NCBI RefSeq assembly: GCF_965641715.1
Contig: NZ_OZ282453.1
Origin: Escherichia coli
GTDB taxonomy: Bacteria > Pseudomonadota > Gammaproteobacteria > Enterobacterales > Enterobacteriaceae
Length of the DNA stretch: 64,000 nucleotides
Reading direction: 5' to 3' (one strand)
A model generated the notes under the pieces. That model saw nothing but the letters and a program-made list of their open reading frames with translations, did no database searches and was not told the origin of the DNA. The translations under genes were made by a program, and so were the position numbers. Positions 29,649 to 36,787 of the stretch are shown here, in pieces. The first letter of the stretch is position 1, and every line of letters starts with the position of its first letter.

Positions 29649-31235
29649 TTAATGCTCGCGGGTCTGGTGGAACTGAACGTCCGGATAACGTTCCTGCGCC
29701 AGGCGCAGGTTAACCATGCTGGTAGCGATGTAAGCGAGGTTATCGCCGCCATCAAGCGCCAGTTGGCTTTCGTTCTTACGCTTGAACTCTTCGAATTTCT
29801 TCGCGTCCGCACATTCTACCCACCGGGCGGTGGCAACGTTGACTGATTCATATACTGCTTCAACGTTGTATTCGCTCTTCAGGCGCGCTACCACCACATC
29901 AAACTGCAGCACACCAACCGCACCAACGATCAGGTCGTTGTTGGAGATCGGACGGAACACCTGCACCGCGCCCTCTTCGGAAAGCTGTACCAGCCCTTTG
30001 AGCAGCTGTTTTTGCTTCAGCGGATCTTTCAGGCGGATACGACGGAACAGTTCTGGTGCGAAGTTCGGAATACCGGTGAACTTCATCATCTCACCCTGGG
30101 TAAAGGTGTCGCCGATCTGAATGGTGCCGTGGTTGTGCAGGCCGAGGATATCGCCAGGATACGCTTCTTCAACGTGCGAACGGTCACCCGCCATAAAGGT
30201 CAGCGCGTCAGAGATCACCACGTCTTTCGCGGTGCGCACCTGGCGCAGCTTCATGCCTTTTTCATATTTACCGGATACCACGCGCATAAACGCCACGCGG
30301 TCGCGGTGTTTCGGGTCCATGTTGGCCTGAATTTTAAATACGAAGCCGGTAAATTTGTCTTCGCTCGCTTGTACGGTACGGGTATCAGTCTGACGCGGCA
30401 TCGGCGCAGGTGCCCACTCCACCAGGCCATCCAACATATGATCGACGCCGAAGTTACCCAGCGCAGTACCGAAGAATACCGGAGTGATTTCGCCCGCAAG
30501 GAACAGCTCTTTGTCGAACTCGTTAGACGCGCCTTTAACCAGTTCCAGTTCGTCACGTAGCTGCTGTGCCAGATCTTCACCAACCGCAGCGTCGAGATCC
30601 GGGTTATTCAGCCCTTTAACAATACGGACTTCCTGAATGGTGTGCCCTTTACCGCTCTGATAGAGATAGGTTTCATCTTTATAAAGGTGGTAAACGCCTT
30701 TAAACAGCTTGCCGCAGCCAATTGGCCAGGTGATCGGTGCGCAGCCAATTTTCAGCTCGTTCTCAACTTCATCGAGCAATTCCATCGGGTCGCGGATATC
30801 ACGGTCAAGTTTGTTCATAAAGGTGAGGATCGGCGTGTCGCGCAGACGGGTAACTTCCATCAGCTTACGGGTACGATCTTCAACACCTTTTGCGGCGTCG
30901 ATAACCATCAGGCAGCAGTCCACCGCCGTCAGGGTACGATAGGTATCTTCCGAGAAGTCTTCGTGCCCCGGGGTGTCGAGCAGGTTAACCAGGCAATCGT
31001 GATACGGAAACTGCATCACAGACGTAGTAATGGAGATCCCACGCTGCTTTTCCATCTCCATCCAGTCCGACTTAGCGTGCTGGTTGGAACCACGGCCTTT
31101 TACTGTACCGGCGGTCTGAATGGCCTGTCCGAACAGCAGCACCTTCTCGGTGATGGTAGTCTTACCGGCGTCCGGGTGAGAAATAATTGCAAAGGTTCTT
31201 CTTTTCGCTACCTCTGCGGCCAAAAGGCTTGTCAT
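29649..31235 (-). CDS. prfC: peptide chain release factor 3 (start probably [13 protein letters not shown]; N-terminus differs from the K-12 protein as I recall it)
   Basis: GTPase motifs [21 protein letters not shown]; full-length EF-G-like protein. Confidence 0.9.
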
Positions 31236-31421
31236 AATTGTTGTCTCTTTGATTATGTACAATCATATGTACAAAGAAAAATTCATGCCGCTGATTGTAC
31301 ATTTTGGAGGTATCAGAGCATAGCAGAACATGATCAGTAGGTGTATTTGTAGCCAAAGAACATTTGTACATGCAGCAATCTTTGCTCTATTGACACTGTT
31401 TATTTATACAGTTAAAAATAA

Positions 31422-31441
31422 TACTGTATGCAAACACAGTG
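31422..31441 (+). promoter_or_regulatory. candidate LexA (SOS) box upstream of the dinI-like gene
   Basis: tactgtatgcaaacacagtg fits CTGT-N8-ACAG. Confidence 0.45.
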
Positions 31442-31454
31442 TAGAGGGAGTTTT

Positions 31455-31715
31455 ATGCGTATTGAGATCTGCATAGCCAAAGAGAAAATGACTAAAATGC
31501 CAAACGGTGCTGTGGATGCGTTAAAGGAAGAATTAACCCGACGCATCAGTAAGCGTTATGACGATATAGAGGTGATCGTAAAAGCCACCAGCAATGATGG
31601 CCTTTCTGTTACGCGCACCACTGATAAAGATTCAGCTAAAACTTTTGTTCAGGAAACTCTGAAAGATACCTGGGAGTCTGCTGACGAGTGGTTTGTATAC
31701 TCCAACCATAAATGA
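31455..31715 (+). CDS. DinI-family protein (prophage-encoded; track ORF starts at 31428 but a better RBS precedes MRIEICIAK)
   Basis: [35 protein letters not shown]...[16 protein letters not shown] resembles DinI (MRIEVTIAK...QETWESADDWFV). Confidence 0.7.
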
Positions 31716-31883
31716 AGTTAATGACTATTGTGAGCGAGAAACGCGCTACTACTATATAGACAGACAAGATGCACTTACTGAATAAATACTCATAACGGAG
31801 AAACCAGCTGTATAGTGAACAATAGATTTCCAGTAGCATATTTTTACTTCACTTTTAGTTATTAATATGATAATCATAAACTA

Positions 31884-32018
31884 CGGCTCTGCCTTAAATT
31901 TGTGAGGTTGTTTCGCCTCGAAGGAACTAATGTTAGGACATACGCCACCGTTCAGTCGATGGTAACGCTTCTTAACTAGTGGTCCGCTAAGTGATGCGCA
32001 AAGTGATTGGGCAGAGCC
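31884..32018 (+). ncRNA. candidate retron msr-msd ncRNA bounded by 10-bp inverted repeats (a1/a2)
   Basis: cGGCTCTGCC at about 31884-31893 and GGCAGAGCCg at about 32009-32018 are exact reverse complements, immediately upstream of the RT gene. Confidence 0.5.
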
Positions 32019-32042
32019 GAAACGTTTACAATCCGATAGGAG

Positions 32043-33677
32043 TTGGTTTTGTCGCTACATGATAAATTATTAATGCATAACTTCGCATTAGCCAATAAAA
32101 AAAGCCCTGACTTCATATCTGAACTTCCTCAAATTGAACCTAAACCATACAGCAATGGACATAAAATTAAATGGATAAACCACACACTTACTAGCACTGA
32201 AGTTACTCCGCCTGATAACCTGATTAAAATATGCATATTGATTGAGTCAGGGGAAATTGCTATAACATCAGTAAGTGATATTGCCAATTTACTTGGAGTT
32301 CCTGCTGGCCAATTACTTTATATACTATATCGTAAAAAAGATAATTATCGTACTTTTGAAATAGAAAAGAAGAATGGTAAAAAAAGAGTCATTAATGCTC
32401 CTTGTGGCGGTCTATCGATACTCCAAACGAGACTAAAGCCCGTTCTTGAATATTTCTACAGGCCAAAGAAATCTGCTCATGGTTTTATAAAAGGAAAGAG
32501 CATCATTACTAATGCTGGGATGCATATTAAAAAAAAATTTGTCGTAAACATTGACCTAGAAAACTATTTCGAATCAATAAGTTTTGCTAGGGTTTATGGA
32601 ATATTTAAAAGTAAACCTTTTAATTTTTCTCATCCAGCAGCTACTGTTTTAGCTCAGTTATGTACTCACAATGGAAAATTACCTCAAGGTGCGTGTACAT
32701 CGCCAATATTAGCAAATATTGCATCAGCTTCTCTAGACAAACAGCTCACCCAATTTGCAGGAAGAAAAAAAATATCTTATTCTAGGTATGCTGACGACAT
32801 AACTTTTTCTTTCAATCAGAGAAATATTGATATAATCAAAAAAAACGACGACGGAAGTTATAGTCTTAGTGAAACTATAGACAATATTATTTCAAAAAAT
32901 GGCTTTAAAATAAATTATGATAAATTTAGAGTTCAAACCAGAAATACAAGACAAAGTGTTACTGGCTTAGTGGTTAATGATAAAGTTAACATTAACAGAA
33001 GATATATAAGAATTACACGTTCAATGATTCATAGATGGACAGATGATAAGCTAAAGTATGCACTTCTCTTTGCTACAGAAAAAGGATATCAGGCAAAGGA
33101 TAATAACCACGCAATTCAAATTTTCCGAAATCATATTTATGGAAGACTTAGCTTTATAAAAATGGTTAGAGGGAAAGACTATCCAGGATATTTAAAACTG
33201 ATGTCATACATGAGTCATAACGATCCATTAAAAACCCAAGAAGGATTGCGAGCAATGAAAGAAACAGAAAACTTTGATGTTTTTATATGCCATGCAAGCG
33301 AAGACAAAAAAGACATTGCAATTCCAATATATGACGAGTTAACTAAACTTAAAATTTCAGCCTTCATAGATCATGTTGAGATAAAATGGGGCGACTCCTT
33401 AATTGAGAAAATAAATGCAGCACTAGTTAAATCAAAATATGTCATCGCTATTTTATCTGCTAATTCAGTCAATAAGGAATGGCCTCAAAAAGAATTAAGA
33501 GCAGTTTTAGCCAGCGAAATATCGAGTGGCGACGTAAAACTTTTGACCCTATTAAAAAAAGAAGACAAGGAGGTCGTAAACCTATCATTACCTTTACTTA
33601 GTGATAAGTTTTATATGGTCTATGATAATAATCCTGAAGTAGTCGCCAACAATATTAAATCACTCTTACAACGATAA
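32043..33677 (+). CDS. retron-type reverse transcriptase fused to a C-terminal TIR domain (544 aa)
   Basis: RT motifs NAP, VNIDLENYFESI, TSPILANI, YSRYADDITFSF (YxDD) and retron-specific VTG (SVTGLVVN); C-terminus FDVFICHASEDKKDIAIPIYDEL...NKEWPQKEL is TIR-like. Confidence 0.85.
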   Translation: MVLSLHDKLLMHNFALANKKSPDFISELPQIEPKPYSNGHKIKWINHTLTSTEVTPPDNLIKICILIESGEIAITSVSDIANLLGVPAGQLLYILYRKKDNYRTFEIEKKNGKKRVINAPCGGLSILQTRLKPVLEYFYRPKKSAHGFIKGKSIITNAGMHIKKKFVVNIDLENYFESISFARVYGIFKSKPFNFSHPAATVLAQLCTHNGKLPQGACTSPILANIASASLDKQLTQFAGRKKISYSRYADDITFSFNQRNIDIIKKNDDGSYSLSETIDNIISKNGFKINYDKFRVQTRNTRQSVTGLVVNDKVNINRRYIRITRSMIHRWTDDKLKYALLFATEKGYQAKDNNHAIQIFRNHIYGRLSFIKMVRGKDYPGYLKLMSYMSHNDPLKTQEGLRAMKETENFDVFICHASEDKKDIAIPIYDELTKLKISAFIDHVEIKWGDSLIEKINAALVKSKYVIAILSANSVNKEWPQKELRAVLASEISSGDVKLLTLLKKEDKEVVNLSLPLLSDKFYMVYDNNPEVVANNIKSLLQR

Positions 33678-34121
33678 TTCTCTCACAAAAGCAAATGTGC
33701 AGATTGATGCGTATTAAGTATTAACCTGCACATACAAAAAATTAATAAAATAATATATTTTTCATAACCTGCAGGTAACAATAATATGTGTCGTAACGAA
33801 TAGTTGGATAACCTCTATACCCTATTAACCAACCAATTAACTCTATGTAATCTCGCAGCCTCAAAACCCGACTATTGTTCTCTTAACAGTCAGTTCACGT
33901 TCCATTTCGGCCTGAGCCCCATAACATGGAAGAAAAAACGCCCCCAGTCAGTCCAGCTTTCAGACAATCAGTGTGTCACCTGCCGATAATATTCTGAGTA
34001 GTTTTTTCAGCCCAGGCCTTTCGGACTTTGTACCACTGATTTTATCTTCAAAATCAGCGCGCATTCTTCGTAGTCCAGCAAACTCTTGTATATGACGTTA
34101 TTATGGCTACAGCAGTAACGA

Positions 34122-34215
34122 TTATTCCATAACAGGTACTGTAGGCCACTCAATATCCGGTGCTACTGATGTATCAACACGGTTCAGCAACACCCGATAC
34201 TTTTTCCAGGTTGTT
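34122..34215 (-). pseudogene. 3' remnant of the tail fibre assembly gene tfa (about 31 codons)
   Basis: minus-strand translation [28 protein letters not shown] matches the lambda Tfa C-terminus; no upstream tfa coding sequence. Confidence 0.55.
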
Positions 34216-34326
34216 ACCAGACTCACATTCGTTCATTAATATGTCCTGTGATTTGCGTGCGGTGAGGTAGCCTTTTCCCAACCTCACCATCATCCGGCAA
34301 TTTGTATTTATCACAAACGGCCTGTA

Positions 34327-36723
34327 TCAGTTGTCTGTTGCACCAACCATACCCGCAAATTTGAGCCATTGTCCTGATGGACTTCTGTTACCGCGGTAGT
34401 GATAAACAAGGATTGCATTTGTTACTCCACCATAGTCAGCTTTATGTGATGTGGTTAAGCGAATTGTATAATCACCATCGGGCAGGTTAAAAACTTCAAT
34501 TACAGTCCCTGCTAATTCAACCGCTCCAAACCCCGTTATATTGTTGATGCTGCCCGCATTGAATCCCATCATATCGCCAAAACCAATCCAGTACTTTTTG
34601 CTGAACGCACCATTTGACCTCAGGTGGTTAATAAATGTGGACATACTCATGCCCATTTCGCCGCCAGTTATGGCTGATGTACGTACCGAAATACTTGGCA
34701 GAGCACTACTCTTCACATAAGAGCTCAGAAGATTTATGACTTCTGTTTTCGTATAAGCATTAACGTTAGCCGCAGTCAACGTTATATCCGCAGTGCCATC
34801 AAACTTCACACCAGCAATTTCCCTTGCAGTCTGCAATTTCGTGGCACTGGCTGCGTTACCCGTTGTATCCTGATTGCCTGCCGCATTCACCCCCGGGATC
34901 AAATCTTTTACTGTATAAATCTGCGCCCAGTCCGACTCAAACCCATACTCATCCCGTGAGGAACGATAAAACAGCCCACCATTTTTATAATTGGCCCTGA
35001 TTTGCAACGTCCGGCAACTTCCACCCCCTGTATAGAAGTTTGCAACAATATAGCTGCTGCCTGTCCGGGTGACATTGTATGCACCAGATTTGGCATTCCA
35101 CGGAACGCCTCCCTCTGACTCTGCGTGCACACCGGACGATCCAAGAGCAAAAGCAGAGACATCTGCAGCGGACAGCCTGATGTCTGATTTCAATGCCTTA
35201 CCATTCACCTTACGACCAGATGGAACCCGGTCATTTGCATTATCATTCACCGCTTTCACCGCCATTGGTGTTGCCGCCAGCGATTCACTGTCACTGTCCG
35301 TGGCACTGCTGAGCTGTACCACCCCCTTTCTCGTCGTGCTCGCATCCTCTAGCGCCACGGCAGATGCAATATCCTCTGCCCGTTTTGCTGCTGTCTCGGC
35401 ACGCGTTGCTGCAGATTCCGACGTACTTTTGCTCTGAGCTGCCGCTGTCGCACTACCAGCTGCCTCTGTCGCCTTCGTGGATGCCGTCGTGGCACTGACC
35501 TTCGCCTCTGACGCCTGTCTTACCGCCTCATCTTTTGAAGCAGACGCCGATGATGCTGATGACGCCGCCGAACTGGCGGACGATGCGGCTGCCGTTTCTG
35601 AGGCTCCTGCGCGGGTTTCCGACGCTTTCGCATTCGTCTCAGATGTCTTCGCTGCGGAAGCAGAACTCGCAGCTGCAGTGGCCTGTTCAGTGGCTTCGCC
35701 AGCCTTCGTTGTGGCTGTTGAAGCGGACGATGCAGCGCTTTCTGCCGATTTTCCGGCGGCAGCGGCACTGGCTACAGCCTCCCCTGCCTTCACTGATGCC
35801 TCACGGGCCGATGATGCAGCCGCGGTTTCTGAGCCTGCCGCAGCTGAGGCACTCTGTCCCGCTGCCGTTTCAGAAGACCTGGCGTTCGTCTCGGACGTTT
35901 TTGCCGCTTTCGCGGAATTGCCTGCCGCTGTTGCCGAGGAAGCTGCGCTACTGGCGCTCGAGGATGCGTTCGTTTCTGATGATTTTGCCGCCTCTTTTGA
36001 AGCCGCCGCATCCCGGGCTGAGGTGGCAGCTTCTGACGCTTTCGTAGTCGCGGTGGATGCAGAAGTGGCTGCTGATTGTTGTGACGCTGCCGCATTCGTT
36101 TCTGACGTTTTCGCGGCACTGGCACTGGTAGCTGCCGCGCTTTTTGAGGACTCTGCAGCGGCAGCACTTTTTGATGCTTCAGTGGCCTTTGTTGATGCCG
36201 TTCCTGCGCTGGAAGTCGCTGACTGAGCCGACGACGCGGCCTGTCCGGCTGACGTGCTGGCTGCGCGTGCTGAGCCTGCAGCATCAGTCGCATGGGTTGC
36301 CGCCTCACGGGCTGATGTGCTGGCATCACTGGCTGACTTCTTCGCGGCTGCCGTGTTCTGTGCCACCACGGACGCGTTACGCGCCACCTCTTCCACCATC
36401 AGCTCAAAACGGCGCAGTGCCTCCGGACGGGCATCATCCTCCGTCATGGCACCGAGAAAATCATTCAGCGTACCGGGTCGGGAATCTTCATACACTGTGA
36501 TGGTCCCGGCATGTGACGGCGGGAATCCTTCCACCAACAGAATAACGCTGTACTGACCGTACTCAACGTCCATGCTGTAACGCCCGGCTTCATCCGGATT
36601 TTCTGAGGCCAGCGTGTTCACCACCACCGTGGTACTGTTACGTTTTGCTTTCAGCTGGATTGTGCAGTTCTGTACCGGTTTTCCTGTGCCGTCTTTCAGT
36701 ACACCTGAAATCTTTACTGCCAT
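34327..36723 (-). CDS. side tail fibre protein Stf (lambda-like N-terminus, Ala/Ser-rich repeats, divergent C-terminus)
   Basis: MAVKISGVLKDGTGKPVQNCTIQLKAKRNSTTVVVNTL...EEVARNASVVAQNTAAAKKSA matches lambda Stf. Confidence 0.85.
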   Translation of the reverse strand: MAVKISGVLKDGTGKPVQNCTIQLKAKRNSTTVVVNTLASENPDEAGRYSMDVEYGQYSVILLVEGFPPSHAGTITVYEDSRPGTLNDFLGAMTEDDARPEALRRFELMVEEVARNASVVAQNTAAAKKSASDASTSAREAATHATDAAGSARAASTSAGQAASSAQSATSSAGTASTKATEASKSAAAAESSKSAAATSASAAKTSETNAAASQQSAATSASTATTKASEAATSARDAAASKEAAKSSETNASSSASSAASSATAAGNSAKAAKTSETNARSSETAAGQSASAAAGSETAAASSAREASVKAGEAVASAAAAGKSAESAASSASTATTKAGEATEQATAAASSASAAKTSETNAKASETRAGASETAAASSASSAASSASSASASKDEAVRQASEAKVSATTASTKATEAAGSATAAAQSKSTSESAATRAETAAKRAEDIASAVALEDASTTRKGVVQLSSATDSDSESLAATPMAVKAVNDNANDRVPSGRKVNGKALKSDIRLSAADVSAFALGSSGVHAESEGGVPWNAKSGAYNVTRTGSSYIVANFYTGGGSCRTLQIRANYKNGGLFYRSSRDEYGFESDWAQIYTVKDLIPGVNAAGNQDTTGNAASATKLQTAREIAGVKFDGTADITLTAANVNAYTKTEVINLLSSYVKSSALPSISVRTSAITGGEMGMSMSTFINHLRSNGAFSKKYWIGFGDMMGFNAGSINNITGFGAVELAGTVIEVFNLPDGDYTIRLTTSHKADYGGVTNAILVYHYRGNRSPSGQWLKFAGMVGATDN

Positions 36724-36787
36724 ATTCACCCCACAAAAAAGCCCGCCTGAACCGGCGGGCTGTCATAACACTGTGTTACCTGGCTAA

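Follow-up and report, generated by a model that had tools for sequence, protein, structure and literature searches.

In a lambda-like prophage of Escherichia coli, a gap of 649 bases (33678-34326) separates two convergent genes, one encoding a retron RT-TIR protein and the other the side tail fibre Stf. All positions refer to the window, by which we mean the whole stretch of DNA that was analysed (64,000 nucleotides). The initial annotation of the gap recognised the end of a tail-fibre assembly gene (tfa) and linked its decay to arrival of the retron, which raised two questions: what truncated tfa, and was the neighbouring Stf thereby left without its chaperone? Our analyses indicate that the gap is likely to be the scar of a decayed host-range module, and that this scar was left by an exchange of the fibre tip and not by arrival of the retron.

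Composition of the gap

Read on the minus strand from the stf stop, the gap consists of a non-coding spacer, a tfa stump, the remains of a serine DNA invertase gene and an AT-rich flank that reaches to the RT-TIR stop (Table 1). Both the invertase pseudogene and the spacer had been overlooked in the initial annotation.

Table 1. Coordinates of the features in and around the gap, numbered from the first base of the window
Feature	Position	Strand	Extent and basis
Retron RT-TIR gene	32043..33677	+	cargo between the attachment-site-proximal dinI-like gene and the tail-fibre end
AT-rich flank	33678..33860		~180 bp, RT-TIR stop to invertase remnant
Pin/Hin/Gin-type serine DNA invertase pseudogene	~33861..34091	-	alignment to intact P2-like phage invertase
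8-bp inverted repeat, CTGATTTT / AAAATCAG	34036-34043 / 34050-34057		6-nt loop; within invertase pseudogene
tfa pseudogene stump	34122..34210	-	last 28 codons + stop; Pfam, lambda Tfa, DNA alignment
Crossover interval within stump	34158..34173		16 bp; informative sites, five-way alignment
Non-coding spacer	34211..34326	-	116 bp, stf stop to stump
Exchanged distal (host-range) stf cassette	34327..35233	-	~last 300 codons; knob, fibre repeats, terminal alpha/beta knob
stf side tail fibre gene	36729..34327	-	intact 800-aa ORF; Pfam, lambda comparison

The tfa stump is contained in a 34-codon ORF on the minus strand (34226..34122, with a GTG at 34226). This ORF matched the Pfam family Caudo_TAP (PF02413) with an E value of 6e-13, over profile positions 103-130 of 131 only, and 28 of its 33 residues aligned with residues 162-194 of lambda Tfa are identical (85%). 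A five-way DNA alignment of the tfa ends from the window, lambda, 13P477T, SC516 and ETEC1731 showed that tfa-derived DNA begins at ~34210/34211 (CCTGGAAAAAG...). The initial annotation had described the remnant as the last ~31 codons of tfa; Pfam and lambda Tfa bear out that the stump is real, and the DNA alignment shortens it to 28 codons plus the stop. The stump is thus homologous to the Tfa family, in which complete members of about 130-200 aa combine an N-terminal and a C-terminal domain, but of the conserved C-terminal oligomerisation domain only the last part is left, and the fibre-binding N-terminal domain is missing. Judged by these alignments, it is a pseudogene remnant and not a Tfa member in a functional sense, and in near-identical genomes PGAP labels it as “tail fiber assembly protein, incomplete, missing N-terminus”. 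A complete tfa-like ORF was looked for as well; tblastn with six diverse Tfa proteins found no further Tfa-like sequence in the 64-kb window, and the alignment of the remnant holds.

A stump of this kind might still have a use. The ORF that starts at GTG 34226 could encode a functional mini-Tfa made up of the trimerisation helix only, or the stump could be kept as a docking site for cassette exchange, as its frame is open, its residues are conserved and comparable stumps persist beside chaperone-independent fibres (SC516). However, just 28 of the 131 positions of the Pfam profile are covered, no Shine-Dalgarno motif is visible 5' of the GTG, and the copies of the stump are almost identical, which makes their conservation uninformative. 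Moreover, stump length varies by lineage (28 and 44 codons), with breakpoints lying at 89, 120, 130, 145 and 166 bp from the tfa 3' end, a pattern that fits passive recombination leftovers. We therefore consider a mini-Tfa or a maintained docking site exceedingly improbable and continue to treat the stump as a pseudogene remnant.

The spacer between stf and the stump was found by blastn in eight places in six E. coli genomes, all from pigs. A source for it was sought in phages by blastn and in viral contigs and one-genome-per-species contigs by exact-word scans, and none of these searches gave a match. Approximately 40 nt past the stf stop, the spacer contains a hairpin (34261-34288) with a 9-bp stem that includes a perfect 8-bp repeat (GGTGAGGT / ACCTCACC), a 12-nt loop and no U tract; the fold z-score of the spacer is -1.8. 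Two overlapping spacer ORFs of 48 and 46 aa had no Pfam or PHROG matches. The 48-aa ORF (34369..34223) was considered as a small chaperone and set aside as spurious, given the lack of such matches and the location of its first 43 nt within stf.

The invertase pseudogene lies 30 bases beyond the stump and aligns in two pieces, with 81-84% DNA identity, to phage invertase genes, including the intact one of a P2-like phage. The remnant begins near codon 22, so that the N-terminus with the catalytic serine is gone; internally, 101 bp are deleted, single bases are missing at two positions, and two stops lie in frame. The C-terminal third, which would hold the DNA-binding HTH, is also absent. Hence, the homology to serine DNA invertases is evident, but there is no intact ORF with a catalytic serine region and an HTH, and PGAP names the remnant in relatives “recombinase family protein, frameshifted”. 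An invertible segment would carry a pair of inverted crossover sites around alternative fibre or chaperone ends. On our searches the locus has no such arrangement, as tblastn revealed no inverted second tfa or stf end in the 64-kb window and only short inverted repeats were found in 33600-34400. The invertase is dead, and inversion is no longer possible.

One short repeat had been singled out in the initial annotation. This perfect 8-bp inverted repeat is indeed present, and it proved unremarkable: it corresponds to codons A-D-F-E-D-K-I-S of the invertase remnant, it is imperfect in the intact homologue, and a perfect 8-bp repeat with a loop of 3-20 nt occurs in 15% of Markov-simulated 649-bp sequences. 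Being part of a coding remnant, imperfect in the intact gene and statistically ordinary, it was rejected both as an invertase crossover site and as a regulatory hairpin. No function is indicated for it, and a functional explanation is unneeded.

The AT-rich flank always accompanies the retron haplotype in complete E. coli genomes. It contains an imperfect 19-nt inverted repeat (33695-33733) directly after the RT-TIR stop, which a consensus scan did not call as a terminator. The terminator and promoter scan of 33500-34500 found no terminator, and promoters were not in excess. Rfam returned a chance CRISPR-DR match and a sub-threshold match to IS009 (RF02111) over the stump (34165-34235, minus strand; 41.8 bits against a gathering score of 117), and nothing else.

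Stf and its distal tip

Stf has the features of a lambda-type side tail fibre, with a phage_tail_N N-terminal domain (PF08400, E value of 1e-71) and a gene position after J and lom. The ORF finder begins the protein at GTG 36729 (MNMAVK...), and in lambda and relatives it begins at an ATG two codons on, here 36723 (MAVKISG); by this comparison, translation probably begins there. The protein shares 84% identity with lambda orf-401 over residues 3-328, and a second, gapped alignment (56%) extends the likeness to about residue 499, through the motif ...LSSAT..SE.LAATP.AVK.... Up to about this residue, therefore, Stf consists of a lambda-like N-terminal domain and an Ala/Ser-rich shaft. Past it, there is no similarity to lambda orf-314. 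The initial annotation had correctly seen a lambda-like N-terminus joined to a foreign C-terminus, and the orf-401 and orf-314 alignments enlarge the divergent part from the 150 residues that it gave to about 300.

The last ~140 aa of Stf form the terminal alpha/beta knob. The tip as a whole matches phrog_6722 through to the end of the profile, and the distal 300 residues are 79% identical to the C-terminus of CYRAN_21 from Cyrano, with 80-82% identity at the DNA level. Between the window and Cyrano, dN/dS is 0.10 over the distal 300 codons and 0.07 for the terminal knob; by these ratios, the tip is under purifying selection. The 798-aa stf ORF is intact in all five prophage copies that were checked. 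At five loci, NCBI nevertheless marks stf with this tip as a pseudogene “missing C-terminus” despite the intact 798-aa ORF, a label that appears to be an annotation artefact of an unfamiliar tip.

Two sub-domains of the tip were found, in reversed order, in the phage Mu fibre of PDB entry 8ju3 (E value of 6e-31), a fibre that PMC11821841 designates gp52. For the last 140 residues, an alignment-based AlphaFold model (pLDDT 80) had 8ju3 as its sole PDB match, with a TM score of 0.76, an rmsd of 2.0 Å and 30% identity; a single-sequence AlphaFold prediction of the last 307 residues reached a pLDDT of only 35 and was unusable. The knob is located at the extreme C-terminus in 14 of 122 library relatives and is an internal fibre domain in the rest. 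A search for relatives in viral contigs returned mostly the generic fibre repeat (residues 1-45) and one full-length relative, and a homologous-protein search gave five close fragments only. Pfam found no match on Stf besides PF08400 at E<=1 and no Peptidase_S74 in the tip, such that Stf does not resemble the self-chaperoning S74 fibres in this respect.

Recombination breakpoints and the retron haplotype

The retron-side haplotype is present at prfC in approximately 80 complete E. coli genomes, with 97-99% identity to window positions 33678-34208. This haplotype comprises the dinI-like gene, RT-TIR, the flank, the invertase remnant and the tfa 3' end, and the segment 33678-33940 always travels with the retron. 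Two such loci that were fetched have 99% identity to 31001-34210 of the window. The similarity ends sharply at 34208-34210, and between 34210 and 35233 the retron haplotype differs from the window. Specifically, at least 35 of the ~80 genomes (for example, 13P477T) encode a full-length Tfa of 194 aa and a Stf of 1099 aa there, and others break 120-166 bp into tfa, as counted from its 3' end.

The combination of tip, spacer and stump, for its part, occurs in prophages that have no retron. It was found at potB in ETEC1731, ETEC1747, CV839-06 and RM10740 and at the Rac-type uspF/ompN site in PEC41, in each case 99-100% identical; over 34211-35200, the window and the ETEC1731 potB prophage share 99-100% identity. 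The six genomes with the cassette come from pigs, namely from Japan, Korea, Belgium and the USA and, in the case of one piglet isolate, from an unstated country. Two of the six hold the cassette in two different prophages, a pattern suggestive of its having moved recently between prophages resident in one host.

Informative sites in the five-way alignment placed the crossover between these two sequence types within the stump itself (Table 1). On the stf side of the crossover, the window follows the potB-type cassette and, on the retron side, the prfC retron haplotype; the breakpoints given by blast are 34208-34210 versus 34133-34144. Alignment to relatives, which the initial annotation had proposed as a check, thus located the breakpoints, and on this evidence the window is a recombinant of a potB-type cassette and the retron haplotype. 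The crossover interval also includes a 3-nt patch (34164-34166) in which GTA (Val) replaces ACT (Thr) and which is absent from the four other aligned tfa ends. An independent parallel at this locus comes from SC516, where Stf carries an intramolecular chaperone of the S74 type and the tfa stump after it measures 44 codons.

These data bear directly on the proposal that arrival of the retron truncated tfa by deletion or recombination and so deprived Stf of its chaperone. The stump, the decayed invertase and the retron do all fall within 650 bp, and another prfC prophage has cargo beside a truncated invertase. However, at least 35 genomes combine an identical retron-side sequence with a complete tfa, and, therefore, acquisition of the retron did not truncate tfa. 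In addition, the truncated junction is present in retron-less prophages at two other attachment sites, and the breakpoint between haplotype and cassette lies inside the stump and not at its truncated end, indicating that tfa was imported already truncated. We accordingly regard truncation by the retron as very improbable. What stands of the original suggestion is that the fibre end underwent recombination with exchange of the C-terminus; its link to the retron does not, in view of the genomes with full tfa and the retron-less copies.

Cargo insertion may have left its mark elsewhere. In other prfC prophages, homology to the window ends at about 31697, and two loci show that cargo varies in the slot bounded by the tail-fibre end and by the dinI-like gene adjacent to prfC. 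The slot of 2017-19-1CC holds an AAA ATPase and an SOS-response peptidase remnant beside a truncated invertase, and that of O103:H2 12009 holds the effector gene nleG7. A truncated invertase in a prfC prophage with other cargo makes it plausible that cargo insertion hits the invertase and not tfa; more plausibly, then, it was the invertase that cargo insertion damaged in the window.

The RT-TIR gene is named “TIR domain-containing anti-phage reverse transcriptase” by PGAP in relatives. The window carries an unbroken RT-TIR ORF; in EC416 and PEC41, the two complete genomes closest to it, the ORF is split or frameshifted, and in M505, M719 and YJ4 ISSen4 interrupts it. Upstream of RT-TIR, no Rfam retron ncRNA family was matched.

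The homologies and breakpoints are observed, as are genomes that combine the retron with a full tfa and contexts in which the tip stands without a neighbouring tfa; from these we infer the following order of events. The gap would be what decay has left of the distal part of a lambdoid host-range module and would have no function of its own. In the ancestor, stf and tfa would have been followed by a Pin/Gin-type invertase, belonging to a fibre segment that was invertible or had been so earlier. The invertase would then have decayed to a pseudogene, with RT-TIR sitting beyond it as cargo in the attachment-site slot. Independently, the distal ~1 kb of stf and most of tfa would have been replaced by a foreign tip that came without a chaperone gene. 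The upstream anchor of this replacement may have been the conserved shaft or linker of stf (~35233), and the downstream anchor the final ~90 bp of tfa, which are likewise conserved. As the Tfa C-terminal domain is conserved, the tfa 3' end is similar across cassettes of different specificity, and this oligomerisation domain, common to Tfa proteins of differing specificity, could have served as a ready patch of homology. Homologous recombination would since have carried the cassette between lambdoid prophages of pig E. coli, where it now occupies three attachment sites, and in the window the mapped crossover would have joined it to the retron haplotype.

It follows from this reading that the stump is uninformative on arrival of the retron and should not serve as a marker of the retron insertion point. 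The scar itself is of a known kind, and its parts are already annotated as pseudogenes in public genomes. Its interest is as a well-resolved case of the long-established exchange of tips at conserved linkers, with the crossover mapped to 16 bp.

Chaperone use by the tip and comparison with known systems

Whether Stf has lost a chaperone depends on whether its new tip needs one. Gene neighbourhoods suggest that folding of the tip most likely does not require a lambda-type Tfa, as this tip occurs without an adjacent tfa in six contexts. In Cyrano (pLF82), the fibre gene is followed by the genes for holin, endolysin and spanins, and the 108-kb genome contains no annotated Tfa and none detectable by tblastn (best E value of 0.5). 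The same fibre-gene arrangement as in Cyrano is found in two related phage-plasmids. A lipoprotein-like gene comes after the fibre gene in two jumbo-phage contigs, and ygiW takes that place in a dusA prophage of E. coli A10. Cyrano virions are made after induction, with no propagation host reported (PMC9928086). The closest relative, EC416, carries a lambdoid prophage that looks essentially complete between integrase and tail. The fear of an orphaned or non-functional Stf thus finds no support, although it is not disproved: the tip is tfa-free elsewhere, it shows purifying selection and the ORF is intact.

The alternative is that the swapped Stf still depends on a chaperone. It would then be helped in trans, by a co-resident Tfa or an unrecognised factor, or else the virions would be fibre-less, like those of lambda PaPa. 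Consistent with this idea, structural comparison relates the terminal knob only to a domain of the Mu tail fibre, a fibre that uses a Tfa-family chaperone of its own. The Mu counterpart of the knob, it should be noted, sits internally in 8ju3 and not terminally. Tfa would also be available in many hosts, as 5219 of 5426 E. coli genomes match a tfa-containing query and several tfa genes per genome are usual, and lambda is viable without side fibres. On the other side, the genes that follow the tip in the six contexts, which are independent of one another, are not tfa genes, Cyrano has no Tfa-like sequence by tblastn, and the tip ORFs are intact and under strong purifying selection. Tfa proteins have a variable, fibre-specific and fibre-binding N-domain and a conserved C-terminal trimerisation domain (PMC9608196); because the N-domains are fibre-specific, help in trans from an unrelated Tfa is unlikely. 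Taken together, we judge continued dependence on a chaperone to be unlikely and favour folding of the tip without a lambda-type Tfa.

A broader reading, possible but doubtful, is that the Mu-like terminal knob defines a Tfa-free class of E. coli side-fibre tips and that the terminal ~90 bp of tfa serve co-resident lambdoid prophages as a general site for docking such tips. If Tfa independence were confirmed, the tip cassette may constitute a chaperone-free receptor-binding module that can be grafted onto lambda Stf for use in engineered particles.

Among known systems, the lambda stf-tfa region has the same gene order as the window, J-lom-stf-(tfa). In Ur-lambda, Stf is accompanied by Tfa. Laboratory lambda has a frameshifted stf, whereas the window presents the reverse situation, with stf intact and tfa a pseudogene, and the last ~300 residues of the window Stf are unrelated to lambda. 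In the invertible segments of phages and prophages (the e14 P region, the Mu G segment, the P1 C segment and those of P2-like phages), a serine invertase is located directly 3' of the fibre and chaperone genes, as in the window. Unlike the segments served by Pin, Gin, Cin and Hin, the window has a dead invertase and no inverted tfa' or stf' copy, as searched for by tblastn of the window with respect to tfa.

The closest parallels to the tip are the fibres of Cyrano (pLF82, SSU5-like) and PHROG 6722, in which the distal 300 residues correspond to those of the window up to the same end residue and no chaperone gene comes after. The Cyrano fibre, in contrast, is 1341 aa long, has a different N-terminal attachment region and is encoded before the lysis genes of a phage-plasmid. 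Both distal sub-domains of the tip also have homologs in the Mu fibre of 8ju3, but there the domain order is reversed and the knob is internal, with a further C-terminal region after it, whereas in the window the knob ends the protein. Finally, the S74 Stf of SC516 offers a chaperone-independent tip on the same prophage backbone, and it too is followed by a tfa 3' stump. The two loci differ in that SC516 has S74 in its tip and a stump of 44 codons, whereas the window has no S74 and a stump of 28 codons.
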